DNA from: an uncultured Dehalococcoidia bacterium
GTDB taxonomy: Bacteria > Chloroflexota > Dehalococcoidia > UBA6926
Length of the DNA stretch: 64,000 nt
Reading direction: 5' to 3'
Assembly: GCA_964405845.1 (NCBI GenBank)
Contig: CAYOPL010000012.1
Location: 95,583-159,582 of the forward strand
The position numbers and the translations under genes are program-made. The notes below the pieces were generated by a model. The model was given only the letters and a program-made list of their open reading frames with translations, was not told where the DNA came from and made no database searches. This document shows positions 5,658-63,250 of the stretch, piece by piece. Each line of letters opens with the position of its first letter. Within the stretch, counting starts at the first letter, position 1.

Positions 5658-7310
5658 ATGTCAATCGTTCAAACGGCACTCGATAAACTTCCAGTTCGAC
5701 CCTCGTACAGCTGGGGCCAACTGCGCGGTGACGTTTTCGGCGGGCTAACCGCGGGCAGCATCGTCCTGCCCGCCTCCATCGGCTATGGTCTGATTTCCGG
5801 TCTGGGTGCCGTCGCCGGGCTCTATGGAGCTGTGGCGGTTAGCCTCTTTGGCGCGCTCTTTGGCGGCACCCGGGGGATGATCTCCGGCCCGAATATTCTC
5901 GTTACCCTGACGATGGCCGCCGTCGTCTCCCAATACGCCAACAGCCTTGCCGAGGCCGCAACGGCAGCCATTCTTGCCGGTCTGATTCAGATGGGCTTTG
6001 GCGCTCTACGGCTTGGGCGCTATGTCTCCTATATTCCGTATTCCCTGATTGCCGGGTTCTTCACGGCCTTTGGCATCCTTTTGATCATCAAACAAGGACT
6101 GCTTGCCTTCGGTGCATCCGCGGGCGGTACTGCGCTCGACAGCATCCGTGCATTTCCTGATGCGGCGCGAGACGCCAACCTGGAGGCCCTCGCGGTCGCG
6201 ATTTTCTGTGTTGCGTTGGGAGTGGCGTGGCGTGGAAGACTCTTGAAGATTGCCCCGTCTCAATTTGCCGTACTCGTCTGCGGGACAGTCGTGGGCGTTT
6301 TGTTCTTTGCAGGGGCGCCGACTATCGGGGCTATCCCACAAGGGCTGCCCGCGCTGGAACTGCCCCCCTTCTCACTTGATTTGGTAATCCGGCTTCTACA
6401 GCCCGCCTTTGCGATGGCTCTGTTGAGTTCTCTGGCGACACTCATCGTCGCTCTTCCCCTGGATACGATCACAGGTACCCAGCACAAGCCCAATCAGGAA
6501 TTGGGAGCGCAGGGCATCGGCAACGTGGCCGCCGGCCTCATCGGTGGCCTGCCCGGCGGCGTAACCCCCGGCACCTTCGTCAACGTGTTCAGCGGAGGAC
6601 GCACACAGGTGGCGGGATTGACCGTTTCCGCCCTTATCATCTCGGTCATCCTCTTCCTTGGCCCGATAGCAGAGCGCATTCCCTTGGCGGTCCTCGCAGG
6701 CATCCTGGCCATCAACGGCTGGAACGTCATAGATTGGCGGTTCGTCAAACGCCTGCATCGCGTGCCTGCCGACTACACAATCGTGATGCTCCTCACGTGT
6801 TCTCTCGTGCTGTTTGTGGACATCACTCTTGCGGTGGTAGCCGGTGTCGTCGTCTCCGCGATGACCGGCGCGAGACGGCGCGAGAAAATGGAAACCGAAA
6901 CGCTCATCTCCGCCCCTATTCTTGACAGCGTGTTCCTTGAGGACGATGAGGCAGACCCTTTCGAGGCGCGTGCGGGCATCGTTATTTTCCCTGATCGCGT
7001 CACGGTGGCCTCAACCCGTGAGGTGAGCCGCATCGTCCGTTCGGACATCCTCGGGCATCAGGTCGTCATCTTTGACATGTCCCGCACCTTCTTCATCGAC
7101 GATTCCGCTGCGGTGGCCATAGCGGACCTCATCAGGATCGCCGCTGTTCGCCGCCCGGGCCGCCTTGTCATCGCAGGACTGACAAGACCGGTCACGGAAA
7201 CTCTTGACGCCTTCGGTCTACGTGCCGCCTTGCCGGAAGGATTGATTGTTCCGGACATGGACACCGCAAGAGCCCGCGTACGCGACTTACTGGCCACCCG
7301 TTCACCCTGA
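5658..7310 (+). CDS. SulP family anion (sulfate/bicarbonate) transporter with a C-terminal STAS domain.
   Basis: MSIVQTALDKLPVRPSYSWGQLRGDVFGGLTAGSIVLPASIGYG... is a SulP signature, with multiple TM segments. The C-terminal STAS region reads VIFDMSRTFFIDDSAAVAIADL. The start was refined to the ATG at 5658, since the track ORF from 5316 overlaps the PKS start. The stop TGA lies inside the REP-like repeat. Confidence 0.85.
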   Translation: MSIVQTALDKLPVRPSYSWGQLRGDVFGGLTAGSIVLPASIGYGLISGLGAVAGLYGAVAVSLFGALFGGTRGMISGPNILVTLTMAAVVSQYANSLAEAATAAILAGLIQMGFGALRLGRYVSYIPYSLIAGFFTAFGILLIIKQGLLAFGASAGGTALDSIRAFPDAARDANLEALAVAIFCVALGVAWRGRLLKIAPSQFAVLVCGTVVGVLFFAGAPTIGAIPQGLPALELPPFSLDLVIRLLQPAFAMALLSSLATLIVALPLDTITGTQHKPNQELGAQGIGNVAAGLIGGLPGGVTPGTFVNVFSGGRTQVAGLTVSALIISVILFLGPIAERIPLAVLAGILAINGWNVIDWRFVKRLHRVPADYTIVMLLTCSLVLFVDITLAVVAGVVVSAMTGARRREKMETETLISAPILDSVFLEDDEADPFEARAGIVIFPDRVTVASTREVSRIVRSDILGHQVVIFDMSRTFFIDDSAAVAIADLIRIAAVRRPGRLVIAGLTRPVTETLDAFGLRAALPEGLIVPDMDTARARVRDLLATRSP

Positions 7311-7417
7311 GCTTGTCGAAGGGTGGGCCCCCTTCGTCATTCTCGCGAAAGCAGGAATCCAGCGCGGCGCGCGGCGCCGCCTCTACTGTCATTCTGAGCG
7401 CAGCGAAGAATCTGAAG
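7297..7417. repeat. REP-like composite repeat: modules A (tcaccctgagcttgtcgaagggtg), B (gtcattctcgcgaaagcaggaatccagcgcggcgcgcggcgccgcc) and C (gtcattctgagcgcagcgaagaatct).
   Basis: The hairpin modules can be read directly. The SulP stop codon is the TGA inside module A. Confidence 0.8.
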
Positions 7418-7451
7418 CGGTGATCAAAAGACCAGGGAGAGGCGCAGCAGG

Positions 7452-8618
7452 CTACCCCCAGACGTTCTGAGCGGTCTCCGCGACAACCCGCAGCTTCGCG
7501 TTCTGCTCGTCGATACTGAGGCGATTGCCAACGATGGACGTGCCGAACCCGCATTGCGGGCTAATGGCCAACTGCTCGCGCGGGAAGTGATGAGCCGCCT
7601 CGGCGATTCTGCCTGCAAGCTCTGAAGGCGTCTCGGCGCGCGGTGTCTTTGTCGTAACTAATCCCAGCGCCACCGTCTTGTCGTCTGGCACGCCGCGCAA
7701 AGGTTCGAATGAGCCTGAGCGCTCATCGTCGTACTCCAGCATGAGCCGATCCGCGTTGACGCGCTGAAGCACCGGCTCGACAATCCGGTCGTAACCGCCT
7801 TCGGCCAGCCAACGGCTGCCCTGATTGCCTCGTCAAAGATGGAACGCGAACGTCACATCCGTGAAGCCGTCCATCACCGCGTTGTCCAGCTCAATCCCTT
7901 GCGTGATCCAGTCCTCTCCGGTCCGACCCTGGGACTCGTAGAACGCTGCCCATGTCGGATCGAGGATAAGAGGGTAGTGCGGGGCGTCGAGCTGGATATA
8001 CGTTGCGCCGAGCCTAATTAGCTCTTCGATCTCCTCGCGGATGATCTGTGCGACGTCACTCAGAAACGCATCAAGCGTGGGGTAAGCCTCAATAGACTTA
8101 CTCGGCGACCAGAAATTAGCGAATAGGCTGGGACTCGGCAGGGTCACCTTCAGCATGCGCGTCGTGCGGCCCCGGAGATACGTAAACTCTTCTGCCGACA
8201 GGTGACGCTTGCGCCGCAGCTTGCCGACGACACCGAGCGTCGCTGGCCGCTCCTTGGGGGCGTTCCCCACCCGCTCATCGCCACGCCAATCACCCCAGAG
8301 AAACGCGTCAATATCGAACTCACCGAATCCTTCCACCGCCTCGGGCATCTGGCTTTGGAAAGACAACCGCCGCATCTCGCCGTCCGTGAGAACCTGTAAC
8401 CCGGCGTCCTCTTGCGCCGCAACCGCGCCATCAACCGCGGCGTCCTCGATGCGCTTGAACTCTGAAGGCGTGATTCGTCCGGCCGCAACGTCCTCGCGTG
8501 CAGCGAGCAACTCCGGCGGCCTGATCAGGCTCCCAACCACGTCGGCATGCGGCAAATTCGGCATGCTGCGGAGTGTTGCATATCGCCGGGGCTTGGGCAA
8601 GCGATTGATGGTAGTCAT
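7452..8618 (-). CDS. Protein of the MetE C-terminal-domain family (cobalamin-independent methionine synthase / homocysteine methyltransferase-like, Zn-dependent). A single in-frame TGA at 7833-7835 interrupts the frame; it is either a candidate selenocysteine codon or a nonsense mutation.
   Basis: Track ORFs 7833..8681(-) and 7452..7772(-) are in the same frame (8681-7772=909). The translation ...IQLDAPHYPL...DVTFAFHL-TGA-RGNQGSRWLAEGGYDRIVEPVLQRVNADRLMLEYDDE...LAISPQCGFGTS matches MetE C-domain motifs: IQIDE, the H-x-C Zn site, the Glu ligand, and NPDCGL. The LPHADVVGSLIRP segment near the N-terminus resembles the MetE LPTTTIGSFPR motif. The start is uncertain; ATGs at 8618 and 8564 are both possible. 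Confidence 0.7.
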
Positions 8619-8630
8619 TCCAGATAAAAG

Positions 8631-8674
8631 TTGCATGCACAATAAATGTGTCTGATAATAATTGTTATATGCAA
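8631..8674. promoter_or_regulatory. AT-rich imperfect palindrome TTGCATGCACAAT-N17-ATTGTTATATGCAA in the divergent intergenic region between the MetE-like gene and marR. It is a candidate MarR operator or shared promoter region.
   Basis: This is a low-GC island in a GC-rich genome. Inverted half-sites can be read directly. It lies about 85 bp upstream of the MarR start at 8760. Confidence 0.35.
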
Positions 8675-8759
8675 ATAACAAGGACCGTCTGAAATCTCGG
8701 CTGCTTGGGCGCAGCGTACATGCTCTATACTGACCTCAAATCACCATGGCGATATACGA

Positions 8760-9245
8760 GTGACAGACAACCACGATCAATCTCAGGGCGGCAATGACTC
8801 CTCGCAAGAGGCGCAGCCTATGGGCTTGGGTATCCAGGTGACCAGCCTGATGAACGCGGTTCTCAGGGGCGCTGCGACTGAATTGGAGCCCTACAACATT
8901 ACTCCTTTGGAGTTCACAGCCTTGCGCATTTGCATGGCCAGGGGTGAGACCACCATGACGGAGTTGGCAGTCGTATTGCCTGTCGATACCTCCCGCACAA
9001 GCCGCACCGTGACCGGGCTGGTTGACAAGGGCTTGCTCCGCAGGCGCCGACGCCGAGACGACCGGCGTGTTGTCATGCTGCGGCTTTCCGAACAGGGAGT
9101 TGAATTGACGTCCACGCTCCAGGCCCTGCTGCAGGCCTTCGATGCCAAACTGACGGAGAACGTCACTGAGGATGAACTAAGCGTATTCGAATCCGTGATT
9201 TCAAGAATCGCGTCCAACTACGCTGCCATGCAGGAGACTGAATAA
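8760..9245 (+). CDS. MarR family transcriptional regulator.
   Basis: A winged-helix MarR signature is present: ITPLEFTALRICMARGETTMTELAVVLPVDTSRTSRTVTGLVDKGLLRR...RVVMLRLSEQG. Confidence 0.85.
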   Translation: MTDNHDQSQGGNDSSQEAQPMGLGIQVTSLMNAVLRGAATELEPYNITPLEFTALRICMARGETTMTELAVVLPVDTSRTSRTVTGLVDKGLLRRRRRRDDRRVVMLRLSEQGVELTSTLQALLQAFDAKLTENVTEDELSVFESVISRIASNYAAMQETE

Positions 9246-9304
9246 CTGCGAGAGGCGCGCCCCGCGGACGCCGGCGTCTCCGGCTCTAGAGCTTGCAGCG
9301 CTGC

Positions 9305-10144
9305 TTACGAAAACGGCTTGTTGGCAATCGCCTCACCGTATCCGACGGCAAGCAGCGCGCCGGGATCCCTCCGCCACTTCTCATAAGCGACGGCTATGTC
9401 ATCGGCGAGTTTCCTGGTGGCCACTCCGTAGCCAATCGCCTGCTCTCTGAGGCTCGGCGACAGGAACCAGCCGTAGACCAGGCGATGGATAAACTCGATT
9501 TCCTCGACCGAGTCGAATATGTCGAACGTCGCATTCATTCTAATGTTGGCAAATCCTGCCTTGAGAAGCTGGCCCTTTAGTTCCTTGCCCATCTGCGGAT
9601 GAGCATCGTCAGTCGCCAAAATGTCTTCGAACATATCCCATGCTTTCCTGAGAATGCCGAAGTCGGGCTCGGTGAAGCTGGACTCGCAGATCATCTCGCG
9701 GCAACCGATGATGCCGCCGGGTTTCAGGACTCGCATCACCTCTGTCAGCACGGCTTCCGTGTCCGGAACGTGCATCAGCACATTGTGGCAGTGGGCGACG
9801 TCGAAGTAGTCGTCCTCAAACGGAAGGTCCGATACGTCGGCAACCTGGAATATCGTGTTTGTCTGACCGCCTGCCTCCGCCACGGATCGCGCCAGGTCGA
9901 TCTGGGATTCCTCCATGTCGACGCCGTGCAGCTCCCCCGGTGAGACAGCCTGTGCCAGGCCAACTGATATGGTGCCGGGTCCGCAGCCGAAATCCAGAAC
10001 GCGAAGCCCCGGCCTCAGATAGGGAAGCAGATAGGCGGCGTTCTTCTGTGCGGTGAACCGCCGCATAGTCTCAACAAACTCATGGCCGAAGCCCATCGTG
10101 TAGTCGGGGGTTGAAGATGTGCGCTCAGTCATAGTGTCATTCAT
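9305..10144 (-). CDS. Class I SAM-dependent methyltransferase (Methyltransf_11/25 type).
   Basis: The motif I sequence VLDFGCGPGTIS is present, followed by HGVDMEE, the acidic FDVAHCHNVLMHVPD, and the post-II LKPGG. Confidence 0.8.
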   Translation of the reverse strand: MNDTMTERTSSTPDYTMGFGHEFVETMRRFTAQKNAAYLLPYLRPGLRVLDFGCGPGTISVGLAQAVSPGELHGVDMEESQIDLARSVAEAGGQTNTIFQVADVSDLPFEDDYFDVAHCHNVLMHVPDTEAVLTEVMRVLKPGGIIGCREMICESSFTEPDFGILRKAWDMFEDILATDDAHPQMGKELKGQLLKAGFANIRMNATFDIFDSVEEIEFIHRLVYGWFLSPSLREQAIGYGVATRKLADDIAVAYEKWRRDPGALLAVGYGEAIANKPFS

Positions 10145-10294
10145 GGACGTTCTGATCGTTCAGTCCGGACAACATGATTCCGCAAACACAACCCTGTAGG
10201 GCTGAAGATATGACACAATCCTGGCGCGCACCCTTTCCCCAGGTTTTCGCCTCTCGGGTTACGTTGATGATTGGGCGGGGGGTCTAAAGTAGCC

Positions 10295-10376
10295 TATCAC
10301 TCGGATATAACCGTCCCGTAACTGTTTCACCGATTTCCTATGACTTTGTGTAACGATTCAGAGAACTCCGCCAGAA
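10295..10376 (+). promoter_or_regulatory. Regulatory cassette copy A: three direct GTAAC(T)ATTC-like sites (ggatataaccgt / ccgtaactgtttc / gtgtaacgattc), followed 17 nt later by a -10-like cagaat.
   Basis: Its architecture matches copies B-E, with site spacing of about 12-13 and about 35 bp. Confidence 0.4.
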
Positions 10377-10694
10377 TCGCCACCCCCGCTCACCCTGAGC
10401 CTGTCGAAGGGCGGGAATAATCCCCCATTTTTCGCGCCACGGTCATCGAGGTGCGATCGCGGGTGGACACGCTACTGGCGCCCCCGTGTCGGGATCCGGG
10501 GGCTGCTCAGGCCCAGAAGGCGGGTCTGGGAACAGGTAGAGACTTTTGGGGTGCGACAGCGTAACGACCAAAGGGAATTTCGAGGTGTGGTCGCCACCGG
10601 ACTTATGCTGTTGCCGGCACAGGCTTTCGCCGTACAAGGGCCCCGTGGGGCGCCTCCCGACATTGCACTGCGAATCTCGCCGAGTGCCACTATA

Positions 10695-10775
10695 CCACTC
10701 GGATATAACCGTACCGTAACTATTCGTCCGATTCGGCATCACTTCCTGTAACTATTCCAGGAACTCCGCCAGAAT
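10695..10775 (+). promoter_or_regulatory. Regulatory cassette copy B (ggatataaccgta / ccgtaactattcg / ctgtaactattcc + cagaat).
   Basis: Direct repeats can be read in the sequence. It lies immediately 3' of gene 10809..11654(-). Confidence 0.45.
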
Positions 10776-10808
10776 CACTACGCCCGCTCACCATGAACTT
10801 GCCGTGGG

Positions 10809-11654
10809 TTAGCGCCAAGCCGCGCCCCTCGGGTGCATCCTTACACAGTAGGTGCTTCCTATCGAAGTCCACCGGGCAGGGGTTCCCGCCGTGTAGTACC
10901 CGTCACGGGGACAGACGTATTCTTTTGGAGTTGTAGCCGCATACCGGGTCTGGTCCAGCGTCATTCTTGAGTAATCGGGCACTACAGACCATTCGTTGCC
11001 GTCGTTCGGACAAGCATAGTTGGAGTCTTTGCTGGCCTTTACGAACCCTCCGTTGGAATCAGTGCGGACGCAAGATTCAGTGTCCTGTCGGCTGAACGCA
11101 AAACGCTCTTGAACGGACGCGCAGTATTTGGACAACCCTGAACTGGCCAGATCACCCACTCCGTAAGGCGAAAAGTATGAATAGACAGCACTGAGCAGGA
11201 TGCCAATGTTAGGCGCGTTTATCGTCGCCACCCCCGGGATATCCAGGAATGGGAATCCCTCTCTGTTATCAGAGTAGAAGCTCGAATAGATTACGCACGC
11301 AGCCTTCGCAGGTGTCTGTGTGGCCCGTCGCGGAGTTGAAGGAGACGTGCCTTGTGTCGGTGGTGTCGTTGCGCGTGGAGTTGGAGTGGCGGTGGCCTCG
11401 GGCTGCCCCGGGCCGTCATCCTCGTCCTCATCGCCATCCTCGTCGCCGTCCTCGTCTTCATCCTCCTCGTCCTCCTCTTCCGGAACCGGAGTCGGAGTGG
11501 CGGTCGCCAGGACAGGCGGCGGCAGCAAAGGACCCGGATTGCCCGGATCGGGAAGATCAGGCAGAGCCATCACAGAGGCGGCTGTCAGCATCAGCGATGC
11601 CATCAAGGCAATCGTTACAACAACACCAAGGGAAAATCGTCCACGCTTGCTCAT
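10809..11654 (-). CDS. Secreted protein of unknown function. It has a signal peptide, a Pro/Thr-rich linker, a poly-acidic (E/D) low-complexity linker, and a C-terminal Cys-rich domain of about 160 aa.
   Basis: It begins MSKRGRFSLGVVVTIALMASLMLTAASVMA (signal peptide), followed by the EEEDEEDEDEDGDEDGDEDEDD tract. The C-terminal domain has 6 Cys (CVIYSSFY...YCASV...CVRTD...YACPNDG...YVCPRDG...YCVRMH). I recognise no known domain. Confidence 0.6.
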   Translation of the reverse strand: MSKRGRFSLGVVVTIALMASLMLTAASVMALPDLPDPGNPGPLLPPPVLATATPTPVPEEEDEEDEDEDGDEDGDEDEDDGPGQPEATATPTPRATTPPTQGTSPSTPRRATQTPAKAACVIYSSFYSDNREGFPFLDIPGVATINAPNIGILLSAVYSYFSPYGVGDLASSGLSKYCASVQERFAFSRQDTESCVRTDSNGGFVKASKDSNYACPNDGNEWSVVPDYSRMTLDQTRYAATTPKEYVCPRDGYYTAGTPARWTSIGSTYCVRMHPRGAAWR

Positions 11655-12451
11655 CAGCTGCCCCTCCTTTCCTGGGAAGCAGTCGAGTACGCGTTATAGG
11701 CGGCCACCGCCGCCTCGTGAGCCTCCGTGTAGCGGGCGTAGAGCGCCTCAAGACGGTCCAGGCCGTCCTGATCAGTCGGGCAGGTTGAGACCGCCTCAAC
11801 GCTGCCGCACAGGGAAATCGCCAGCTCTTTGTACTCACGCTCAGCGCTCGAACGCTCCTCAAGTCGTGAATAGCTCTCATGGGCAAGACTATAGAAGGCG
11901 ACGTCCTCGGTGAGCGTTGCGGCCGTCTCTGACAGTTCCCGATGTTCGACAAAGAGGGTGTCGTAGCGACCCTGGATGTCCGCCTTCTCTCGCGACAATG
12001 AAGCAACGGTGGCTTGCAGCCGTTCACGCTCCTGGTCGCTCCGGGAGACGACCAGCGAATAGCGCGTGTTCTCGGCCTTCAGATCATTGCGGACATCTTC
12101 CAGGCCCTCGCGTTCCGCGCGTTCTCTCTCTAGTGCGGCCTCGGAGTCCACGAGCTGCCGCCCGGTCTCCTGCACGACCGAAGAAAGAGAATCGCGCTCA
12201 TTTCCCAGTGAGATTTTCGTTGCCCGCTCCACCTCAAGCGCAGCTTCGTTCTCGCTGAGATCCAGCGTGGTCGCGTTGAGTTGGCCCCGCGTCCCGCTCA
12301 GTTCATTCAGGGAGATGGCCAGCCCAATGCTGGCGGCGCCCAGAAGCGCGATCGCGAGAATCAGTCCAACGATCCGCTTGTTGTTCGGCGCGCTGTCGAA
12401 AGCGACAACGGCCATAGCTATTCCAAGGCTCAATCTGCTCATAACTCGCAT
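11654..12451 (-). CDS. Membrane-anchored coiled-coil protein of unknown function.
   Basis: An N-terminal TM segment (LSLGIAMAVVAF ... IVGLILAIALLGAASIGLAI) is followed by a long charged heptad-like region (ALEVERATKISLGNERD...LERERAEREGLEDVRNDLKAENTRY...). The start ATG at 12451 has an AAGGAAAGGA SD upstream; the track start at 12511 is TTG. The stop overlaps the start of the downstream gene by 1 nt, indicating an operon. Confidence 0.55.
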   Translation of the reverse strand: MRVMSRLSLGIAMAVVAFDSAPNNKRIVGLILAIALLGAASIGLAISLNELSGTRGQLNATTLDLSENEAALEVERATKISLGNERDSLSSVVQETGRQLVDSEAALERERAEREGLEDVRNDLKAENTRYSLVVSRSDQERERLQATVASLSREKADIQGRYDTLFVEHRELSETAATLTEDVAFYSLAHESYSRLEERSSAEREYKELAISLCGSVEAVSTCPTDQDGLDRLEALYARYTEAHEAAVAAYNAYSTASQERRGS

Positions 12452-12784
12452 GGCACAGGTCGACCATCCTTTCCTTCTTAGTGGGTGCAGCCGGCGCTTG
12501 TCCAAGCGCAAAAAATGTAGGTGAATGCCGAGAGAGAGGTTAGGGACTAATGCTCCATTCTCACGCTGTCAGCCCTCGTGTTGGGAGCGAAGGCTGCGCA
12601 GACCCATAGCGGGCCTGGATACAGGTGGAACCTATGGAGTGCAACAACACAGCGATCGCGAAAAGGCTCCCCGCGCGGTAGCCACCGGACGTGACGCTGC
12701 GTTGGCACAGTATTTCGTTGTACAAGGGCCAAGTGGGATGCCTCCCAACATGCACTACGAATCTGACCGAGGGCTACTATACCA

Positions 12785-12862
12785 CGCGAATATAACTATT
12801 CCGTAACTATTTGGCTCCCTCTCTATCACTTTTCGTAACTATTCGCCGAAAAGCAACAAAAT
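12785..12862 (+). promoter_or_regulatory. Regulatory cassette copy C (gaatataactatt / ccgtaactatttgg / tcgtaactattcg + caaaat).
   Basis: Three direct repeats sit between gene 12944..13996(-) and gene 11654..12451(-). Confidence 0.45.
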
Positions 12863-12881
12863 CAATGCCGTAGCGCACTTA

Positions 12882-12932
12882 CCCGCTCACCCTGAGCCTT
12901 CGCCCCGCTCACCCTGAGCCTGTCGAAGGGTG
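12882..12932. repeat. REP-like repeat; two tandem module A copies.
   Basis: cccgctcaccctgagccttcgcc + ccgctcaccctgagcctgtcgaagggtgagcc. Confidence 0.75.
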
Positions 12933-12943
12933 AGCCCCAGTCG

Positions 12944-13996
12944 CTACGCCCCCAGGGCCATAAGCACTCCCTCAAGCCCCGCCAGTTCCTCCTCATTCAG
13001 GCACGCGAACAGGTCGAATCCGGCGATGGCCGCCTCGTTGAAATCGACGGACGAGGACTGCGAAGGGTCGCCGCCAATGGGGGAGGCGATGGTAGCGATA
13101 TAAGTCGGGTGGCTGCGGATGAAGTCGCCCGCGCACGCCGCGGACGCATCGCTGAGATCTCCAATCTGGGCCTCAGTGGCAGCGAGCAGGAACGCGACGA
13201 CGCTATCCAACTCAAGGCATTCGGCCGCGCTGACGCCAAGCCCCGCTGCCCTGAGCGGCGTTGTGCCCACCATCGCTACGTACTCCGCCTCGGAGAGCGT
13301 GTCACGCACGCAGGACGCTTCAGACTCTGAGAGCAGGGCCACAAGGTCTTCCCCCGTGAGGGGTGAGAGATTGTCGATAGAGGTGTAGAGCTCGATCAGA
13401 GCGACTGCTTTCTCGTTCTCCGTCATGCAGTCGTAGAAGCCGACAAGGATGTCGCGTGTCTCCTCGCCGTCGAACGTGGTTGTCTCCGGCAATTCAAAGC
13501 CAAGGCGAGCGTAGATGAACTCAGGGTGTTCGAGGGCAAAGTCGGCGATGCACGCGCGGCTTTCGTCGCTGCGTCCACCGGCTGCGGCGTCAAGGAACGC
13601 GACGCCAACAAGCACAGCGTTCTCAGGGGTCAGGCATCCGAATATCGACGCGGCAGCCGCAGGATCTCCGCCGCCTGACGCGAGCAACGGAAAGCTCAGC
13701 ATGGCCTCGTACACGGCATCGCCCAAAACGCCCCTGATACAGGCTGCCTCCTGTTCAGCGAGACGGTCGAACAGGTCTTTGCCCGTGGTTGTCGGGCCGA
13801 GGACGAAGTCCCGCATCGAAAGGACTTCCGGAACGGGTGTCGGCGTGGCCGTCGGAAGCGGAGTTGCCGTAGCAGTCGCCGTGGGTTCCGGGGTAGGCGT
13901 CGGCGGCTCCGAGCATCCAATGAGCGTTAGTGCCAGGAGGAAGATTACTCCCGCGGCAAGTAGTTTGAATCGCAGCATTCCCGTCTCTCGGTGCAT
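12944..13996 (-). CDS. Lipoprotein of unknown function with 3-4 internal repeats of a Cys-containing alpha-helical module of about 90 aa.
   Basis: The signal peptide plus lipobox is LALTLIGCSEP, followed by a Pro/Thr linker. The repeated modules are ACIRGVLGDAVYEAML / ACIADFALEHPEFIYARL / SCVRDTLSEAEYVAMV / ACAGDFIRSHPTYIATI. The start is either the ATG at 13996 or 13978 (MLRFKLLAAG). Confidence 0.6.
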   Translation of the reverse strand: MHRETGMLRFKLLAAGVIFLLALTLIGCSEPPTPTPEPTATATATPLPTATPTPVPEVLSMRDFVLGPTTTGKDLFDRLAEQEAACIRGVLGDAVYEAMLSFPLLASGGGDPAAAASIFGCLTPENAVLVGVAFLDAAAGGRSDESRACIADFALEHPEFIYARLGFELPETTTFDGEETRDILVGFYDCMTENEKAVALIELYTSIDNLSPLTGEDLVALLSESEASCVRDTLSEAEYVAMVGTTPLRAAGLGVSAAECLELDSVVAFLLAATEAQIGDLSDASAACAGDFIRSHPTYIATIASPIGGDPSQSSSVDFNEAAIAGFDLFACLNEEELAGLEGVLMALGA

Positions 13997-14047
13997 ATTC
14001 AGTGTTTCAACTCCGGGTCGTACCCGCCTCTTCGCCTCGCGGCGTAA

Positions 14048-14143
14048 TTCCGTATAACCCTATCGCATCCATACAACCAATCCGTAACTATTCGGCTGCC
14101 TATCTATCACTTCTTGTAACCATCCGCCGAAATATCGAAAAAT
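14048..14143 (+). promoter_or_regulatory. Regulatory cassette copy D (ccgtataaccc / tccgtaactattcgg / cttgtaaccatcc + aaaaat).
   Basis: Three direct repeats sit between the adhesin gene stop (14193) and the lipoprotein gene start. Confidence 0.45.
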
Positions 14144-14192
14144 CCCTGCCCTCCCGTTCACCCTGAGCCTTCGGATCAGGCGTGCGCCGCCA

Positions 14193-16934: not shown

Positions 16935-17014
16935 GGACAGGGCAGGGGCTGTGTTGGAGAGCCTCGTGACGTCACCTCATCTCTATCTTTTTGCCAGTTC
17001 GTCCGAGTCTACCA

Positions 17015-17092
17015 AGTAGCTGTAACTATCCCGTAACTATTCGACCGACTCCCCATCACTTCTTGTAACCATCCACCAAAATACGCATAATT
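17015..17092 (+). promoter_or_regulatory. Regulatory cassette copy E, which includes a good sigma70-like promoter (TTGTAA-N17-CATAAT) for the hybrid kinase/regulator gene. The sites are gctgtaactatcc / ccgtaactattcg / cttgtaaccatcc.
   Basis: The -35 TTGTAA lies at 17063-17068 and the -10 CATAAT at 17086-17091, with a 17-nt spacer. The same triple-repeat layout is seen in copies A-D. Confidence 0.5.
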
Positions 17093-17171
17093 GCCCGTAG
17101 AAACGCAGACTCCAACGCCCACTAGGGACGAAACCCACGGGGTATCCCGAGGCCCATTAAGAGGTGACAAG

Positions 17172-19535: not shown

Positions 19536-19712
19536 CCGGCGAACAATAAAACCTCGTTGTTCCTGCACCTTTCCCGGCTGGATGACTCAGACCAAAACTA
19601 CGACTAACTTCCGGCCGATAGTGATGTAGTAGCCGCTATTGACGCAGTAAAGGTAAAGGCGACCTGACCCGAAAGGCTGGCGTAACCAACCCAGCCCAAT
19701 TACAGCAAAAAA

Positions 19713-19784
19713 TACCCCTGCCGGGACTCGAACCCGGGCCACCAGCTCCGGAGGCTGGTGCTCTATCCGCTGAGCTACAGGGGC
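19713..19784 (-). tRNA. tRNA-Arg (anticodon CCG).
   Basis: The reverse complement GCCCCTGTAGCTCAGCGGATAGAGCACCAGCCTCCGGAGCTGGTGGCCCGGGTTCGAGTCCCGGCAGGGGTA folds as a cloverleaf. The anticodon loop CUCCGGA carries the anticodon CCG, and the T-loop reads GGTTCGAGTCC. CCA is not encoded. Confidence 0.9.
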
Positions 19785-19830
19785 ATGATTACGCCTTGCG
19801 GCGCCCCACCATCATACCCCGCTCAGTTGG

Positions 19831-21627: not shown

Positions 21628-21660
21628 TCCCGCTCACTCTGAGCGTGTCGAAGGGTGAGC
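21628..21660. repeat. REP-like repeat module A.
   Basis: cccgctcactctgagcgtgtcgaagggtgagcc. Confidence 0.7.
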
Positions 21661-22393: not shown

Positions 22394-22452
22394 CCCGTTC
22401 GTCCTGAGCGCCAGTCCATCCGCTTACCCTGAGCTTGTCGAAGGGTGAGCCC
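22394..22452. repeat. REP-like repeat; two module A variants.
   Basis: ccgttcgtcctgagcgcc...cttaccctgagcttgtcgaagggtgagcc. Confidence 0.7.
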
Positions 22453-23363: not shown

Positions 23364-23493
23364 GCGGGAATCTGACACGCCCCACAACCCGCCACGCCGC
23401 CTTTTCCTCTTGTATCCTTATAGCTGAGCGTCGTTGGCACACTCAACGTCGCCCGCTGCGCAATATCCCGGATTCTGATGGAGGCCTCGCCAC

Positions 23494-38693: not shown

Positions 38694-38795
38694 TCCTGCG
38701 AAAGCAGGAACCCATCGGGCCACTTCCACCCCGCTCGCCCAGAGCGCCAATACTCCGGTCACCCTGAGCTTGTCGAAGCGCCTCATTCCCCCCGC
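38668..38795. repeat. REP-like repeat (B-type cattcctgcgaaagcaggaac plus A-type tcaccctgagcttgtcgaag).
   Basis: Readable in sequence. Overlaps the artefactual N-terminal extension of ORF 37488..38786. Confidence 0.7.
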
Positions 38796-49909: not shown

Positions 49910-49912
49910 GCC

Positions 49913-55095: not shown

Positions 55096-55157
55096 AGCCC
55101 GACTATTTTAGACCAATTTCAAAACCACGTCCAATAACTGCTGTTTCTCATCCGTGT

Positions 55158-55315
55158 CTGTCATTCTGAGCGCAGCGAAGAATCTAAAAACTCAATTGCC
55201 CCGCCAGTGTCGGAACGTGGAATACCACCTAACAGGCCAATCCTCGCCGGATCGCGAACCGAGAGCCGTAACGCAGTTACCCGTTCACCGTGAGCTTGTC
55301 GAAGGGTGAACCCTC
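55158..55315. repeat. REP-like repeat (C plus D module at 55158-55215, A module at 55281-55315).
   Basis: gtcattctgagcgcagcgaagaatctaaaaactcaattgccccgcc ... ccgttcaccgtgagcttgtcgaagggtgaacc. Confidence 0.75.
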
Positions 55316-55319
55316 TCCC

Positions 55320-56225: not shown

Positions 56226-56237
56226 TCAATCTGCCTC

Positions 56238-56320
56238 CGTCATTCCCGCGAAAGCGGGAATCCAGTGCGGCGCGCAGCGCCGCCTCCCCCGTTCACCCTG
56301 AGCCTGTCGAAGGGTCACCC
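56238..56320. repeat. REP-like repeat (B plus A modules).
   Basis: cgtcattcccgcgaaagcgggaatccagtgcggcgcgcagcgccgcctcccccgttcaccctgagcctgtcgaagggtcaccc. Confidence 0.8.
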
Positions 56321-56500
56321 CCGTTCGCACATAAAAACAAGGGGGCTCAGCCGAAGCCGAGCCCCCTTCTCCCAGTCGCCAAGGTCAACGCTATGGCGCC
56401 TGGCGCTGGGTTAGCCTTTGCTCACCTCGTCCGTTGAAATAAGCTCTGGCTGTCTAGGTAAAGACATGCGCCAAACCACCTCCTTCCTTCTCAAGATGAC

Positions 56501-57856: not shown

Positions 57857-57913
57857 CTGTCCCCGCCGCTTGGGTCTGGATTTCTGATGCCCTACTATAG
57901 TGCCACTTGAAGA

Positions 57914-58369: not shown

Positions 58370-58373
58370 CCAT

Positions 58374-58455
58374 TCGTCATTCCCGCGAAAGCGGAAATCC
58401 AGTGCGGCGCGCAGCGCCGCCCTCGTTCACCCTGAGCTTGTCGAAGGGTGACCCC
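58374..58455. repeat. REP-like repeat (B plus A modules). It supplies the C-terminal codons and stop of the oxidoreductase gene on the minus strand.
   Basis: cgtcattcccgcgaaagcggaaatccagtgcggcgcgcagcgccgccctcgttcaccctgagcttgtcgaagggtgacccc. Confidence 0.8.
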
Positions 58456-59806
58456 CCAACATCTCCGCCACCTCCGTCCCCGCCCTGTGCCCACTCGAAA
58501 GCGCCCCGTTCACCGACGGCACGCTCATGTAGTCCCCTGCCAAAAACAGGTTATCGACGCGCCCCGCCAACTGCCCCGGGATCTCCGCCACCGCCGCCAG
58601 CATCCCCGGCGTCCCCATGCACAGCGCCTCCTCCCAGCGGTACACGCGGAAGAACAGACCCTCGTCGTCGCCGGGCAGGGCGGAGCCCTGCGGCGCTTTC
58701 GACCGAGCCGCGCCCAGCATCTGCCGCTTGATCTCATCGTCGTCGAGTGGAATCAACTCCTTCGCCTTATCCCGCCCGATGAGCAAGTCCAAAATACTCT
58801 TACCGACAGGCGCGCAGGCGGGTAGGAATGCGGTCCGATTCATCAGAAGCGGCGTGTCGTCATCCTCAGGGAACAGCGCTCCATGCCACCCGGCAGGCAG
58901 CGGCGACTCATCGAGCCCGATAACCACCCGGCACCCCGTCGAATAGCTGACGTTGCTGAGTGCCCGGTGCGTCTCCGTCGGCAGGTCGGGAATCAGACCC
59001 GAGACTTTCGTCCCCGGCACCGCGCAGATGACCGCGTCTGCCTCGATTGTCTCCCCGTCCACCACAACGCCCGTCGCCCTCCCGTCCGCCACAACGACCC
59101 TCTCCACGCGAGTCGATACCTGAATTGCATCAGTACAGAATTCGCCAAGCGCCGCGCTCAGCGACCCTATCCCCCGCTCCGGCATATACACTCTGCCAGC
59201 GCTTAACATCGTCTCCCCGATGTACGCCCGCATCAGAGCCTGCCCCGCGGGCAGCGGATCGCCTAGCACCATCTCCAACGGCCCGCGCAGTGATATCGCC
59301 AGCTTGTCCGGCACCCGCAGCCGCTCAAGATACTCGCCGAAACTCTCGTCGTCGTCGATCTCGGCGATAGGACTGTCGCTGGCGAAACTCATGTAATCCG
59401 CCTGCTGCCGGATCTCCCGCATCACCTTGTAACCGGCACGCATGCCTGAAGGTGAAAGAAAACCCATCGCCACTGCCGTCCGCAGATGCCTCAGAAAGTT
59501 CCAGAGCGACTGGTCCGGCGTCGTCGTAACCCACCGCCCGCCGCGATAGTGCCCGAACTTCATCTGCGAAGGCACGAGCGGCAGACCCAACTCTTCGCAG
59601 ATACGGAACGCCGTGTCATATGTGGACGTGAACACAAACGCCCCCATATCCACGGAGAACCTGTCCACCCGCTCCCCGCTGCCGCGTCCCCCCACGTGGT
59701 CCTCGGCCTCAAGCAGCAGGGGAGTGATTCCCCGCTTCATCAGCGTGTACCCCGCGCTCAGCCCCGCAAACCCTCCGCCAACAATCACAACCCGCTTACT
59801 GCTCAT
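58427..59806 (-). CDS. FAD-dependent oxidoreductase of the protoporphyrinogen oxidase / phytoene desaturase (amine-oxidase fold) family.
   Basis: MSSKRVVIVGGGFAGLSAGYTLMKRGITPLLLEAEDHVGGR is the dinucleotide-binding motif. The start was refined to the ATG at 59806; the track ORF extends to 60241. The last 8 codons and the stop lie in the REP-like repeat. Confidence 0.75.
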   Translation of the reverse strand: MSSKRVVIVGGGFAGLSAGYTLMKRGITPLLLEAEDHVGGRGSGERVDRFSVDMGAFVFTSTYDTAFRICEELGLPLVPSQMKFGHYRGGRWVTTTPDQSLWNFLRHLRTAVAMGFLSPSGMRAGYKVMREIRQQADYMSFASDSPIAEIDDDESFGEYLERLRVPDKLAISLRGPLEMVLGDPLPAGQALMRAYIGETMLSAGRVYMPERGIGSLSAALGEFCTDAIQVSTRVERVVVADGRATGVVVDGETIEADAVICAVPGTKVSGLIPDLPTETHRALSNVSYSTGCRVVIGLDESPLPAGWHGALFPEDDDTPLLMNRTAFLPACAPVGKSILDLLIGRDKAKELIPLDDDEIKRQMLGAARSKAPQGSALPGDDEGLFFRVYRWEEALCMGTPGMLAAVAEIPGQLAGRVDNLFLAGDYMSVPSVNGALSSGHRAGTEVAEMLGGHPSTSSG

Positions 59807-59894
59807 TCGCGCCGTTCCTTTCCAACCGATAGTAGTATGTAGGGCGGTTGCCGTCGAAATCCCTAAACAGTGCAACCCGAGAAGGAAGGTAGCC

Positions 59895-61607
59895 ATGGTG
59901 AGTGTGCTGGTGGCGATAGCCGCCCTCGCCACTGTCGGCATCCTGTTCGCGCTTGACCCGGGCGGGGCAATCGCTGAAAGCGGCTTCCCCGATTTCCGGG
60001 AGATGGACTGGACGCAGCTCGCGTTCTGGGGCTTCCGCACCATAGGCGTAGCTGTAGCCCAGCTGATCGTCATCGTGCTGTGGCTGTGGCCCGGGTACCG
60101 GCCTCCGGCGGCGGGCGCATCGTACCTGGGAACTCCGCGGCCCGACTCAATGCCCGCGGCGGCGGTATCTGCGATGGAAGGCCACATGATATGGAGTCCA
60201 ACGATTCTGGCCTCCATCATTGAGATGGCCCAGCGTGGCACATTGCGAATAGAGCCTGTCGCAACAAGGGTCGGCTTCCTCTACCGCCTGTCTCGGCAAG
60301 GCCTGGTGGAATATGACTGGGAGCGAGCGATATCCGACAGCCTGCCGTCGCGCCCCACAACGATTGATGCGCTTAGTGAAGCAATAGACGAGCATAAGGA
60401 TGCTATCGGCGACCGGATAGGGGCCTACCTACAGCAGCGCGGCCTTTTCGATGACAATCCGGTGCGAGTCAGGAGAGAGAACTCCGACGACGGAAGCACG
60501 TGGTGGATGCTGGCCTCGCTCCTGACGGGTGTTGGCAGCGGGTTCTGGGCTGCCCTATGGCTGGACCGGTGGTGGGTGAATGTCCTTATCGGCGTGTTCG
60601 CGGGTCTCGTGTACTCGTTTTTCACAATACCGTCGAAGATAAGGACAGGCATGCTGAAGCCAACACCGGCCGGGGCAATCGAGATCGGTCGGTGGCTTGC
60701 CTGGAAAGAGACCGTGACCGCAACGGGATCGGCGATCTCCCGAGACCAGTCGGATCCCATGCTGCCCCACGCCGTCGCATTCAACACGGCCCAGTCGTGG
60801 CTCAACGTCTTGGCTCCGGCTCCCCCGTGGTTCGGGTCAGCCGCCGCATCCACTATGGCGCCCGCCGATTTGGATGCCGCTTACCGCGCCTTCATCCACG
60901 CGCCGGAGTGGTATCTGACCGGGCGAGACGACGATGCGGGGAAAGCGGCTGCCCAATACGGCTATGAGCTGGAACTCGAGGCCCTCGGGCCCCTGCCGCT
61001 GGATTTCGAGGAGGCTGCTGAAAGCGGAACCCAGGCCGAATTTGAAAACATTGCCCGTGAGATGGAGCCGCAGGACACCCCTCCGGCAGCTACGCTGGAA
61101 ACGCCATCAACCGAATATCGGGTATACAGCTCGGAGGGGGCTGCTGAAGAGAAGAAGCGCAGCGGCTGCCTCCGCGGGTGCCTCATGTGGATAATGGGCC
61201 TGCTGATTCTTGGGGTGCTGGCCCTGGGGGTTCTGTTCAGCCTCGATGTGGTCTCGCCCCGTGAAAAACCGTGTCCTCTGGACTCTCCCCCCATCCTCAC
61301 GCCTGCGCAGATCGTAACGCTCAGTGACTTGGTCAGGGATGAATGTGTGCGGGTCGGAGGCACGATTGTGCTCAAGGGTGTCGGGGAGTTGGTGATTGAA
61401 ATGGATCGGGGCGAGTTCGTCCAGCATGTTACCGTCCTCGATCCGTCGGACGATCTCGTAGCAATCCCTCAAGGCCGCGCGATAACCCTGGCCGGATGGC
61501 TCAGAGTGGAGGAGGACGGAACGTACGTAGTCCACTTCGTACCGGACCGGGGAGCGGACCGGGAGTGGTGGCGGAACCTCCGGGACAACCTCGAAGCGTT
61601 GTTCTAG
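59895..61607 (+). CDS. Hypothetical membrane protein (N-terminal TM plus 2-3 internal TM segments, Trp-rich).
   Basis: The start was refined to the ATG at 59895, which has a GAAGGAAGG SD. The sequence MVSVLVAIAALATVGILFAL... matches no known catalytic motif. Confidence 0.5.
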   Translation: MVSVLVAIAALATVGILFALDPGGAIAESGFPDFREMDWTQLAFWGFRTIGVAVAQLIVIVLWLWPGYRPPAAGASYLGTPRPDSMPAAAVSAMEGHMIWSPTILASIIEMAQRGTLRIEPVATRVGFLYRLSRQGLVEYDWERAISDSLPSRPTTIDALSEAIDEHKDAIGDRIGAYLQQRGLFDDNPVRVRRENSDDGSTWWMLASLLTGVGSGFWAALWLDRWWVNVLIGVFAGLVYSFFTIPSKIRTGMLKPTPAGAIEIGRWLAWKETVTATGSAISRDQSDPMLPHAVAFNTAQSWLNVLAPAPPWFGSAAASTMAPADLDAAYRAFIHAPEWYLTGRDDDAGKAAAQYGYELELEALGPLPLDFEEAAESGTQAEFENIAREMEPQDTPPAATLETPSTEYRVYSSEGAAEEKKRSGCLRGCLMWIMGLLILGVLALGVLFSLDVVSPREKPCPLDSPPILTPAQIVTLSDLVRDECVRVGGTIVLKGVGELVIEMDRGEFVQHVTVLDPSDDLVAIPQGRAITLAGWLRVEEDGTYVVHFVPDRGADREWWRNLRDNLEALF

Positions 61608-61611
61608 GCCC

Positions 61612-62199: not shown

Positions 62200-62217
62200 T
62201 GAATGTCCCCCTCCGTA

Positions 62218-62310
62218 TGTCATTCTGAGCGCAGCGAAGAATCTACAGACTCAATTATGCCGCCCAACCCCCACCGTCATTCCCGCCAAAGCCGGAACGC
62301 GGCGCGCCAA
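62218..62310. repeat. REP-like repeat (C plus D plus B-variant).
   Basis: gtcattctgagcgcagcgaagaatctacagactcaattatgccgccc...ccgtcattcccgccaaagccggaacgcggcgcgcc. Confidence 0.75.
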
Positions 62311-62459
62311 CCACAAGTACCAGCCAACCCTGACCGCGAAGTATGGCCGTAGGCACTGCCTACCCGCTTGCAATTCCACAACTTTGGAGTAGGATGCAGG
62401 TGCGAGGCGTTGAACCCGGATGGCTCCTTTCCATCACAACACATAAAGGAGGCTTGAGG

Positions 62460-63140
62460 ATGGGTACAATTTCCGTGAACCGCTTGGCCGGTCTCTCCCT
62501 CATATTCGGCCCGATAATCGCCTTCATCTTCTTTCTCATAGAGCCGGGTGGGCTATTAATAGACAGCGCCGAAGTATCAGACCCTGTTGGCTCCATAACT
62601 GCCAAGGGAGACAACGAGGCCCTGACAAATGTAACCAACATCGGGATAATCCTTGGCTTGCTGCTGATCCTCTCGGGCCTCTATGCGCTAATGAGAAACG
62701 TAACCCTGCAGGGCAACGGCAAGGCCCTTGTTCAGATGGGCTTCTTCATGATCTTCGTCGGACTGACCGGATGGATTCTATCTGGCGGCTTGGACTTCAT
62801 ACTGGCCGATGCCCAAACCGCTGACCAGATCAGCGAAAGTATTCCCGTCTACTACGTCGGCTCCGCTCTCGTCTACGCCGGTGGGATTGTGCTTGGCTTT
62901 GGCGGCTTCATTTTCGCGTTGGGCCTCTCTACGAGAGACGACTTCAACCGGATAATCTCCCTGTTGGCCACCCTTGTCAGCCTGGCCGTAATGGTCTTCT
63001 TCGTGGTAGCCGTAATTGACAACGATAGCCGCGACACCTTTATCGCCCTGGCTCGGAGCTCCTACGTCCTACTCGTTATCTGGTACGCATATCTCGGCTT
63101 CGGACTCATGAACCGACCCGATCCTGACCTCTGGCAATAA
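62460..63140 (+). CDS. Hypothetical multi-TM membrane protein.
   Basis: The ATG at 62460 is preceded by an AAGGAGG SD. The protein has about 6 TM helices. Confidence 0.5.
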   Translation: MGTISVNRLAGLSLIFGPIIAFIFFLIEPGGLLIDSAEVSDPVGSITAKGDNEALTNVTNIGIILGLLLILSGLYALMRNVTLQGNGKALVQMGFFMIFVGLTGWILSGGLDFILADAQTADQISESIPVYYVGSALVYAGGIVLGFGGFIFALGLSTRDDFNRIISLLATLVSLAVMVFFVVAVIDNDSRDTFIALARSSYVLLVIWYAYLGFGLMNRPDPDLWQ

Positions 63141-63161
63141 CAAACTCTAGGACGTACCACC

Positions 63162-63250
63162 CGTCATTCCCGCGAAAGCATGCCCCGTACTCCGATACGG
63201 GGCGGGAATCCAGTGCCGCCCACAGGGCGGCCTCCCCTGTCCCGCCTCCC
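63162..63250. repeat. REP-like module B carrying a nested extra hairpin (gccccgtactccgatacggggc) inserted into its loop.
   Basis: ccgtcattcccgcgaaagca[tgccccgtactccgatacggggc]gggaatccagtgccgcccacagggcggcctcccc. Confidence 0.7.

Follow-up and report, generated by a model that had tools for sequence, protein, structure and literature searches.

How do short hairpin repeats come to lie, locus after locus, on one and the same strand of a bacterial chromosome, and what process put them there? The question is raised by a 64-kb stretch of DNA, called here the window, from an uncultured Dehalococcoidia bacterium of the phylum Chloroflexota (assembly GCA_964405845.1, contig CAYOPL010000012.1), in which about 33 hairpin modules are spread over 14 intergenic loci between positions 7298 and 63232. 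Our answer is that these are repetitive extragenic palindromic (REP) hairpins of the CGTC type, resident in a Dehalococcoidia chromosome, and that they were probably spread by a strand-specific step coupled to replication.

The modules themselves occur far more often than chance would allow. At three or fewer mismatches, module A (TCACCCTGAGCYTGTCGAAGGGTGA) has eight matches in the window, and module B (which comprises hairpins B1 and B2) and module C have four each, against none expected in shuffled sequence. Looser matching combined with repeat finding gives 11 full A units and three A 5'-halves, nine B1 units and one B1 fragment, five B2 units, and four C units, that is, 29 full and four partial units. 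An earlier note on this DNA had described four modules at 14 or more loci, and A, B and C are indeed found far above chance at 14 loci; D, by contrast, is no module of its own, having one exact match and one chance-level match where 0.29 are expected, and is instead a 3' extension common to two of the C copies (55186-55205 and 62245-62264). Run SRR16090826 contains three independent Logan contigs that match the window at 100% identity, over 3953, 1904 and 6048 bp, so the arrays are no assembly artefact.

All units follow one general layout, with a C-rich leader, an unpaired tag, an 8-nt arm, a loop of 4-5 nt, a return arm and a short tail. B1 reads CGTC-ATTCCCGC-GAAA-GCGGGAAT-CCA(G), A reads CCG(Y)TC-AYCCTGAG-CYTGT-CGAAGGRT-GA, and C reads TGTC-ATTCTGAG-CGCAG-CGAAGAAT-CT, while B2 (GTGCGGCGCGCAGCGCCGCC) directly follows B1 in five of nine cases. 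The tag is CGTC in six B1 copies and CCTC in two, TGTC in all four C copies, and CG(C/T)TC, with one base extra, in A; variants of A with TGTC or CGTC plus AY are present in other phyla. The tail is CCA in most B1 copies, GA or GCC in A, and CT(A/G) in C. Abutting units are joined by 4-12 C-rich nucleotides into heterotypic head-to-tail mosaics, such as the largest array, A-B1-B2-C-A-B1 (34651-34858), whose RNA fold has a z-score of -4.3. Rfam covariance models at gathering score detect nothing but a tRNA in the window, and at E<=10 they detect no relevant family in the largest array.

A and C have in common an apex, TGAGC-N4-CGAA, which closes via a U-A pair, tandem sheared G·A/A·G pairs and a G-C pair, and the 8+5+8 format fits these two units only when the tandem G·A is counted as stem; the second stem pair of A is C-G or T-A. 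Because of this tandem G·A/A·G apex, A and C fold better as the written strand than as its complement: under RNA parameters, 10 of 10 copies of A and 4 of 4 copies of C are more stable as the top strand, the folds of B1 and B2 being strand-symmetric. Pairing extends well beyond the window. Among 128 distinct copies from many phyla, 72.3% of stem cells are paired versus 64.9% in shuffled copies (0/500 shuffles), and the covariation score is 0.281, versus 0.158 shuffled and 0.10-0.16 with slid partners. G·T pairs outnumber A·C pairs by 127 to 55 over stem positions 1-6, and by 34 to 3 at position 4. An alternative 5' hairpin, GYTCR-YCC-TGAGC, which is wobble-compatible on the motif strand only, was considered and rejected as not general, being missing from the CGGTC and GTCAY subfamilies. 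Interpretations of the UGA...GAA apex as a ribozyme or a K-turn are unsupported. Some A copies are nested in the loop of another copy, in the form CCTGAGCCTGC..CCGT(full copy)GTCGAAGG, as seen at five loci elsewhere (L060, L070, L072, L078 and L119) and at 12882-12933 of the window, and isolated A 5'-halves are found both in the window and in other phyla. These nested copies and isolated halves suggest self-targeting or slippage during amplification.

To which family do the units belong? Two superfamilies of REPs have been distinguished by their unpaired terminal tetranucleotide, GTAG or CGTC (Di Nocera, De Gregorio & Rocco 2013, BMC Genomics 14:522; PMC3733652). As that survey describes them, CGTC REPs have a CCA tail and 8-9-bp stems opening with A-T and then T-A, their loops measure 4 nt in family 1 and 5 nt in families 2-4, and their tag may also read TGTC or CCTC; CGTC-1 is equated there with Neisseria dRS3 and Rickettsia conorii RPE-6, and its coded peptides are given as VIPAKAGI, LDSRLRGND and SFPRKRES (PMC3733652). 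Read in frame, B1 (GTC ATT CCC GCG AAA GCG GGA ATC CAG) encodes VIPAKAGIQ, and because the CGTC-1 peptides are translations of B1, B1 is a plain member of CGTC-1 as the survey characterizes that family. A 20-mer of B1 is also identical in a paper on Neisseria gonorrhoeae; a literature search with the repeat DNA strings and their encoded peptides returned nothing beyond a Neisseria primer.

The earlier note missed the uniform orientation of the units. At 14 of 14 loci all units lie on the + strand, for which random orientation gives a two-sided p of 1.2e-4 (about 5e-4 if loci 10386, 12882 and 14153, which all lie directly behind copies of a larger repeat, are taken as one), and the window contains no inverted pair of modules within 200 nt, so that the head-to-head dimers characteristic of CGTC REPs are absent from it. 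The + strand is also C-rich, with a GC skew of -0.054 overall, -0.057 in + genes and -0.060 in - genes; since the skew is equal in genes of both directions, the strand asymmetry is not transcriptional and is most simply replicational. Nor do the flanking genes explain the uniform polarity, because three loci lie between + genes, six between - genes, four between convergent genes and one between divergent genes.

The results on orientation and dynamics pertain to the 64-kb window and to relatives known from short contig pieces. The window carries housekeeping genes by Pfam (cox/cta, ccm, ruvABC, uvrB, ftsK), and its single-chain GlyRS is 83-88% identical to MAG (metagenome-assembled genome) proteins and 94-99.8% identical to members of a Dehalococcoidia/Chloroflexota cluster; an alphaproteobacterial origin, to which the repeat sequences had seemed to point, is rejected on the strength of these GlyRS homologues. 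Units are co-oriented on the C-rich strand in L073 (6 units at 4 sites, GC skew -0.127), in the Dehalococcoidia chromosome L113 (-0.107), in the Dehalococcoidia MAG L020 (-0.074) and in the metagenome contig L213 (-0.071). They are co-oriented as well in the syntenic relatives L463-L466 (GlyRS 94-97% identical, skew -0.05 to -0.095) and L468 (GlyRS 97.5% identical, skew -0.033), and DNA identity between the window and these module-bearing syntenic relatives is about 75-85%. Four further syntenic relatives, whose GlyRS is 83-88% identical, have zero units in 21 kb and a skew of +0.01 to +0.03.

Comparison of corresponding spacers bears out the earlier claim that the family is evolutionarily dynamic, since the same places are filled by different module sets in relatives of about 84% DNA identity. 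The spacer behind the second Zn-ribbon gene holds an A 5'-half and an A in the window, a variant of A together with a B1 fragment and a B1-like unit in L465, and one B1 in L468; after ctaA/B there are six units in the window and one B1-like unit in L468; and after UPF0102 the window and L465 have orthologous A units with different stems, the spacer that L463 and L121 share by common descent being free of units. No target-site duplication was found, the closer relatives showing replacement and turnover and no clean insertion, and in an empty-site reconstruction against the 88% relative the spacers proved too diverged. What is seen is thus turnover at hot spots with polarity kept, not simple insertion into an empty site. 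Over 19.8-34.7 kb the skew is -0.088 in the window, -0.03 to -0.095 in module-bearing relatives and +0.01 to +0.03 in module-free ones (L121, L459-L462); the explanation would be either replication of the region in the reverse direction or a far stronger strand asymmetry in the module-bearing clade. Strong replication skew and polarised REPs may have a common cause, given that module-bearing contigs have skews of -0.03 to -0.13 and module-free ones +0.01 to +0.03.

Could the polarity reflect what the units do, rather than how they arrive? They might be polar chromosome signals (KOPS- or Chi-like sequences, or priming or fork hairpins), or inverted copies might have been purged by selection against rearrangements in a small genome. 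Such an origin would account for a single polarity at 14/14 loci on a strand with transcription-independent skew, and would suit the G-rich runs that lie between units on the complementary strand and the FtsK with a gamma domain that is encoded in the window. However, sister species live without any unit, unit density is very uneven (zero units from 38.8 to 55.1 kb of the window), the unit types are interchangeable at a given site, and other genomes hold the same sequences in mixed orientations, all of which makes this explanation very improbable.

The position of the units next to genes invites a different explanation, namely that they are selected RNA elements, hairpins of 3' untranslated regions that terminate transcription or protect mRNA from 3' exonucleases, a function also favoured in the account of Di Nocera et al. 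2013 (PMC3733652). The earlier note had placed them immediately 3' of genes, which holds for 11 of the 14 loci (30 nt or less from a stop codon) but not for 10386, 56237-56317 and 62217-62302. As is characteristic of CGTC REPs, they are intergenic, mainly in unidirectional or convergent spacers and near the upstream stop (a second tally gives eight tandem loci, five convergent and one divergent), and 147 copies in other genomes behave likewise, lying nearer to stops and in 17 convergent versus 9 divergent contexts. This convergent and tandem enrichment, the frequent G·U-type pairs, the strong RNA fold of the large array, and the B1 copies that 15 viral or gene transfer agent (GTA)-like contigs carry at 23-31 nt from major capsid genes would all fit an RNA role. 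Yet orientation relative to genes is random even though the fold is strand-asymmetric: tandem contexts among the 147 copies from many phyla are 29 sense and 31 antisense, viral loci give 13:20 for B1 and 22:14 for A, and the window gives 3:6 (distant neighbouring copies elsewhere are also evenly divided, 16 in the same and 15 in the opposite orientation). Moreover, some units are found at 5' ends and others where genes diverge, syntenic relatives manage with none, and module type at a given site is not conserved.

The intrinsic-terminator role suggested in the earlier note fares no better. No T-tract follows any module, C-rich joints following instead, and module orientation is unrelated to gene direction. 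A scan of 44-64 kb gave 17 terminator-like sites versus 15.0 expected in shuffles and flagged zero units; the sole strong terminator there, at 56339-56368 on the - strand, has a 13-bp stem and a T-run (GTTTTTATGT tail) and lies between the NhaA stop and the array at 56237-56317, from which it is separate, so the organism uses ordinary terminators alongside REP arrays. Being hairpins in either orientation, the units may also protect some mRNAs at their 3' ends. That they are randomly oriented, can stand at 5' ends and are missing from sister species nevertheless argues that 3' stabilisation is not why the units exist, and we regard selection for an RNA function as a rather unlikely account of them.

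If the units are mobile, what moves them? One proposal, in line with the search for a RAYT/IS200-like transposase that the earlier note suggested, is that they are REPs or REPINs mobilised by a RAYT, or miniature elements derived from IS200/IS605, with the transposase encoded outside the window. Hairpins with an unpaired 5' tetranucleotide tag do recall the GTAG REPs, and strand asymmetry combined with a replication-like polarity is a hallmark of Y1 HUH transposition. The tag is CGTC or TGTC, not GTAG, however, and there are no inverted (REPIN/BIME) pairs. Pfam finds no transposase, integrase or HUH protein among the roughly 60 open reading frames (ORFs) of the window, and no Y1 transposase recurs within 1.5 kb of copies at 335 loci, where clustering of 3664 ORFs brought up only phage capsid, portal, protease, tail and terminase proteins as recurrent in the viral set and nothing in the genomic set. 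Paralogy was likewise not found among the hypothetical genes beside loci 10386, 12882 and 14153. The polarity is, in addition, opposite to that of top-strand insertion into the lagging-strand template, and the 2013 survey, so far as its account goes, describes CGTC REPs as having no dedicated transposase, unlike GTAG REPs, and RAYT and IS200 genes as never flanked by CGTC REPs (PMC3733652). Mobilisation by a RAYT or an IS200-like enzyme is therefore improbable.

The reading that we prefer is that the hairpins spread by a strand-specific, replication-coupled step. New units would be added through a single-stranded-DNA step coupled to passage of the replication fork, by an enzyme that would act in trans and be encoded elsewhere, and insertion would occur preferentially at sites already holding a unit; thereafter the units would be retained as nearly neutral hairpins. 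A bias of orientation linked to replication is on record for IS200/IS605 (Ton-Hoang 2010, Gomez 2014), IS91 and IS110, and by analogy with these precedents a replication-coupled mechanism is plausible, not demonstrated. We would only tentatively go further and suggest that CGTC REPs of this lineage are inserted with a fixed polarity relative to the fork, in which case the strand that carries them would flip at the origin and terminus genome-wide. By the usual skew convention, the C-rich strand is the template of the leading strand.

Several points weigh against replication-coupled spread of CGTC-type hairpins. The better-folding strand sits on the leading-strand template, not on the lagging-strand template used by IS200/IS605, and with DNA parameters the fold asymmetry of the two strands of A and C is negligible. 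Motif strand and GC skew are uncorrelated over 114 single-orientation loci from many phyla, and three Dehalococcoidia contigs (L009, L094 and L115) hold mixed orientations. The loci at 10386, 12882 and 14153 may not be independent insertions, since they follow larger-repeat copies, and a switch of orientation at the origin or terminus is not observable in a 64-kb window and short pieces of relatives. A and C are without the CCA tail, their assignment to a named CGTC family is unverified, and neither the window ORFs nor the 335 loci yielded a candidate enzyme.

How widely are the units distributed? The 17-nt core of A, searched with one genome per species, has at least 120 matches, and among the matches listed there are about 20 phyla, including Chloroflexota, Sphingomonadales and other Pseudomonadota, Bacteroidota, Actinomycetota, Cyanobacteriota, Acidobacteriota, Nitrospirota, Planctomycetota, Myxococcota, several candidate-phyla-radiation (CPR) lineages and others. 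These matches are not due to chance, because their 5' flank is a conserved tag (CCGYTCRY, (T/C)GTCAY or CGGTC) and the flanks pair. Module C is found on Calothrix plasmids with 29/29 identity, and L113 has an A and, in addition, a B1-B2 copy identical to that of the window at 49/51 positions. In the IMG/VR viral contigs, the A core is present in at least 120 stretches and an exact 25-mer of B1 in 95. A scan of metagenomes with the 17-mer at the B1-B2 junction was far less productive, about 110 of 120 matches being chance occurrences inside GC-rich genes and only about seven being true units. The suggestion that the family could serve as a taxonomic marker is contradicted by this spread, with the A core in about 20 phyla among the matches listed and in viral contigs, C on Calothrix plasmids, and B1 equal to dRS3/CGTC-1.

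Two sets of these distant copies have features of their own. The exact B1 copies that lie 23-31 nt from major capsid genes come from 15 IMG/VR contigs of viral or GTA-like character (for example L397, L415, L421 and L458), and other viral B1 copies adjoin portal, protease, tail and terminase genes, including those of GTA-like clusters with DUF2460/NCTSP. At five Sphingomonadales loci (L007, L027, L063, L090 and L102), the A core is flanked by direct CCGTTC repeats, and the 3' half of A (GAAGGRC) pairs with a downstream GTYCTTC that is followed by T-runs. To judge from their sequence, the Sphingomonadales A elements appear to be built into terminator-like hairpins, unlike those of the window.

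The individual loci of the window, all with their units on the + strand, illustrate the range of combinations and the ways in which the units become part of gene ends. Between the convergent SulP (+) and MetE-like (-) genes lie A, B1, B2 and C (7298-7326, 7335-7362, 7362-7381 and 7386-7413), and SulP ends ATRSP-TGA within TTCACCCTGA, the TGA lying inside A, just as the earlier note had read it. A single A (10386-10414) directly follows a roughly 115-nt unrelated repeat; the spacer, flanked by two - genes, is 665 nt long, and a stop codon lies 395 nt away from the A. An A 5'-half and a full A (12882-12899 and 12905-12933) lie 11 nt from the stop of the - gene 12944-13996, a lone A 5'-half (CCCGTTCACCCTGAGCCTTCGGA; 14153-14175) lies 18 nt from the stop of the fn3 gene (-), and a single A (21630-21658) stands 5 nt past the stop of UPF0102 (+). 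An A-like 5'-half and a full A (22395-22411 and 22420-22448) follow a Zn-ribbon gene, and a B1-like hairpin (GGCATTCCCGCGTAGGCGGGAATCTGA; 23343-23375) supplies from its loop the TAG stop of the peptidase gene 22533-23363, which ends SGIPA-TAG; this third case of a gene ending within a unit had been missed. The largest array (A 34651-34679, B1 34690-34718, B2 34718-34737, C 34742-34769, A 34785-34813 and B1 34830-34858) is located between the convergent ctaA/B (+) and ccmC (-) genes.

Farther along, a B1 5' fragment (38669-38680), a B1 (38687-38715) and an A with a degenerate 3' arm (38755-38783) are read as a false N-terminus of ORF 37488-38786 (-), which starts MRRFDKLRVTG...WVPAFAGM...AGMT, and the repeat-coded N-terminal traps of which the earlier note warned are therefore real. 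Between the start of FtsK (-) and the stop of an NTP-transferase gene (-) are a C (55158-55185) with its extension 'D' (55186-55205) and an A (55281-55309). Next come B1, B2 and A (56237-56265, 56265-56284 and 56289-56317), 14 nt upstream of the NTP-transferase start and separated from NhaA by the terminator at 56339-56368 (-). Another B1, B2 and A (58375-58402, 58402-58421 and 58423-58451) lie between convergent NUDIX (+) and amine oxidase (-) genes; the amine oxidase (58427-60241, -) does end GGHPSTSSG-TGA as claimed, its last eight codons and stop being the reverse complement of A, and an ORF at 58402 that reads VRRAAPPSFTLSLSKG is spurious. In a divergent promoter region, C (62217-62244), the extension (62245-62264) and a degenerate B1 (62274-62302) occur together, and the annotated ATG of the DUF899 gene (-) is the reverse complement of a GTCAT tag. 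At the last locus (63160-63232), a B1 (63160-63213) is split by a 24-nt hairpin and followed by a B2 variant (63213-63232) whose stem is fully compensated, GCCGCCC/GGGCGGC. The 24-nt hairpin (63180-63203), unique in the window, is the nested hairpin that the earlier note had seen, but it breaks the 3' arm of B1 two bases past the loop and does not interrupt the loop itself.

The window contains a second, unrelated repeat that is AT-richer, about 80-115 nt long, with an internal direct repeat (CCGTAACTATT). Its copies (10266-10384, 10664-10782, 12751-12869, 14071-14150 and 17020-17099) are all on the + strand, and three of them are directly followed by an A unit or an A 5'-half. This repeat, found in the spacers of a block of hypothetical genes, may be regulatory or island-specific. 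The 11 kb from 8600 to 19712 encode a MarR protein, a methyltransferase, hypothetical proteins, a 913-aa fn3 protein and a hybrid histidine kinase, and are missing in L465, where the MetE-like genes directly abut the tRNA/Na-H exchanger region. The segment ends at the 3' end of tRNA-Arg(CCG) (19712-19785, -), and the GC skew is positive at 12-20 kb, unlike the rest. It is probably a genomic island, whose three REP loci are still oriented like all others. In L466, a large serine recombinase and a DnaE2/ImuB-like cassette (4579-6219) lie to the left of the Na/H exchanger and tRNA, which is further evidence for the tRNA-Arg site as an integration hot spot.

Three other features of the window deserve mention. 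Within the fn3 gene, a tandem duplication at 16083-16848 whose period is about 390 nt (D7 and D10 repeat families, 71-75% identity) fits repeated fn3 domains. Seven ORFs of 100-150 aa at positions 1-5300, of doubtful coding status, gave zero Pfam matches, and this stretch has no REP units. The gene at 7452-8681 (-), similar to cobalamin-independent methionine synthase, is present as two ORFs (106 and 282 aa), and since L465 has the same arrangement (118 and 243 aa), the split is conserved and is not a local frameshift.

What follows if replication-coupled spread is correct? The lineage would then expose how the transposase-less CGTC superfamily spreads, and profiling against the module-free sisters could reveal the enzyme that has been missing since 2013. 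With its abundant, recently turned over and co-oriented units, bracketed by repeat-free relatives, it is a good lineage both for the enzyme hunt and for a test of replication coupling. There are practical consequences as well. The units corrupt gene models through false N-terminal extensions, REP-derived C-termini and spurious ORFs (...LSLSKG, ...FDKLR.., VIPAKAGIQ, LDSRFRGND), and because most bacterial phyla, and viral contigs too, contain the same sequences, databases come to hold spurious 'conserved hypothetical' proteins that the units have seeded. They probably also break short-read assemblies, given that the strain of the window is represented in SRR16090826 only as 2-6-kb contigs.

How, finally, do the units compare with known systems? 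B1 agrees with CGTC-1/dRS3/RPE-6 in its CGTC tag, in an 8-bp stem (ATTCCCGC) opening A-T/T-A, in its GAAA loop and CCA tail, and in its peptides (VIPAKAGIQ and LDSRFRGND for B1), intergenic downstream site, stop donation, N-terminal misannotation, G·T pairs and lack of a flanking transposase. The 2013 account likewise places CGTC REPs downstream of ORFs, between unidirectional or convergent genes, and reports overlaps with ORF ends, N-terminal misannotation and frequent G·T pairs; it describes them as mostly head-to-head dimers with negligible head-to-tail arrangements, and names Proteobacteria, Chlorobi, Bacteroidetes, Spirochaetes and Thermotogae as host phyla (PMC3733652). The B1 units of the window differ in being strictly head-to-tail and co-oriented, never head-to-head dimers, in that about half are fused to B2, in being mixed with other unit types, and in having a Chloroflexota host, outside the five phyla given.

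The placement of A and C is less certain. They share with CGTC-2 (Sulfurovum, Sphingobium, Novosphingobium and Kosmotoga; 8-bp stem, 5-nt loop) the 8+5+8 format and a (C/T)GTC-type tag, their 5' arm AYYCTGAG and loop CYTGT can be likened to it, and frame 2 of C encodes RHSERSEES, close to the CGTC-2 peptide RHSELVSGS of Sulfurovum. They are unlike it in a 3' arm, CGAAGRRT, that makes a tandem G·A not of Watson-Crick type, in lacking a CCA tail, and, for A, in a tag that is one base longer. A and C may be either CGTC-2 or an uncatalogued class with G·A mismatches. The survey states that repeats with more than one stem mismatch were dropped unless they were dimer partners (PMC3733652), and because the tandem G·A exceeds this one-mismatch rule, A and C would have been discarded in it unless they were such partners.

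Among mosaics, the closest parallel is with Neisseria: B1 contains the ATTCCC-N8-GGGAAT inverted repeat of dRS3 (ATTCCCGCGAAAGCGGGAAT), and NIMEs, like the arrays of the window, are mosaics of short units built around the dRS3 hairpin. NIMEs consist of 50-150-bp RS units bracketed by dRS3, whereas the hairpin units here abut directly with 4-12-nt C-rich joints. The GTAG REPs, BIMEs and REPINs with RAYT (E. coli, Pseudomonas and Stenotrophomonas) are similarly short, tagged, high-copy intergenic hairpins in mosaic clusters, for which strand-specific recognition of a folded single strand is the proposed route of mobilisation, and they differ in their tag, their inverted pairing, their associated RAYT and their species-specific sequences, the family of the window spanning phyla. 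With IS200/IS605 (Ton-Hoang 2010, Gomez 2014) there is an analogy only, in the folded top strand and an orientation tied to the replication fork; a transposase gene and a pair of distinct subterminal hairpins are found there and not here, and the polarity here is seemingly opposite. In sum, the element class, its effects on gene ends and its annotation traps are already described, and what the window adds is a Chloroflexota host, the very broad spread of units with a G·A apex, their strict head-to-tail co-orientation, and the contrast between repeat-rich and repeat-free sister species.

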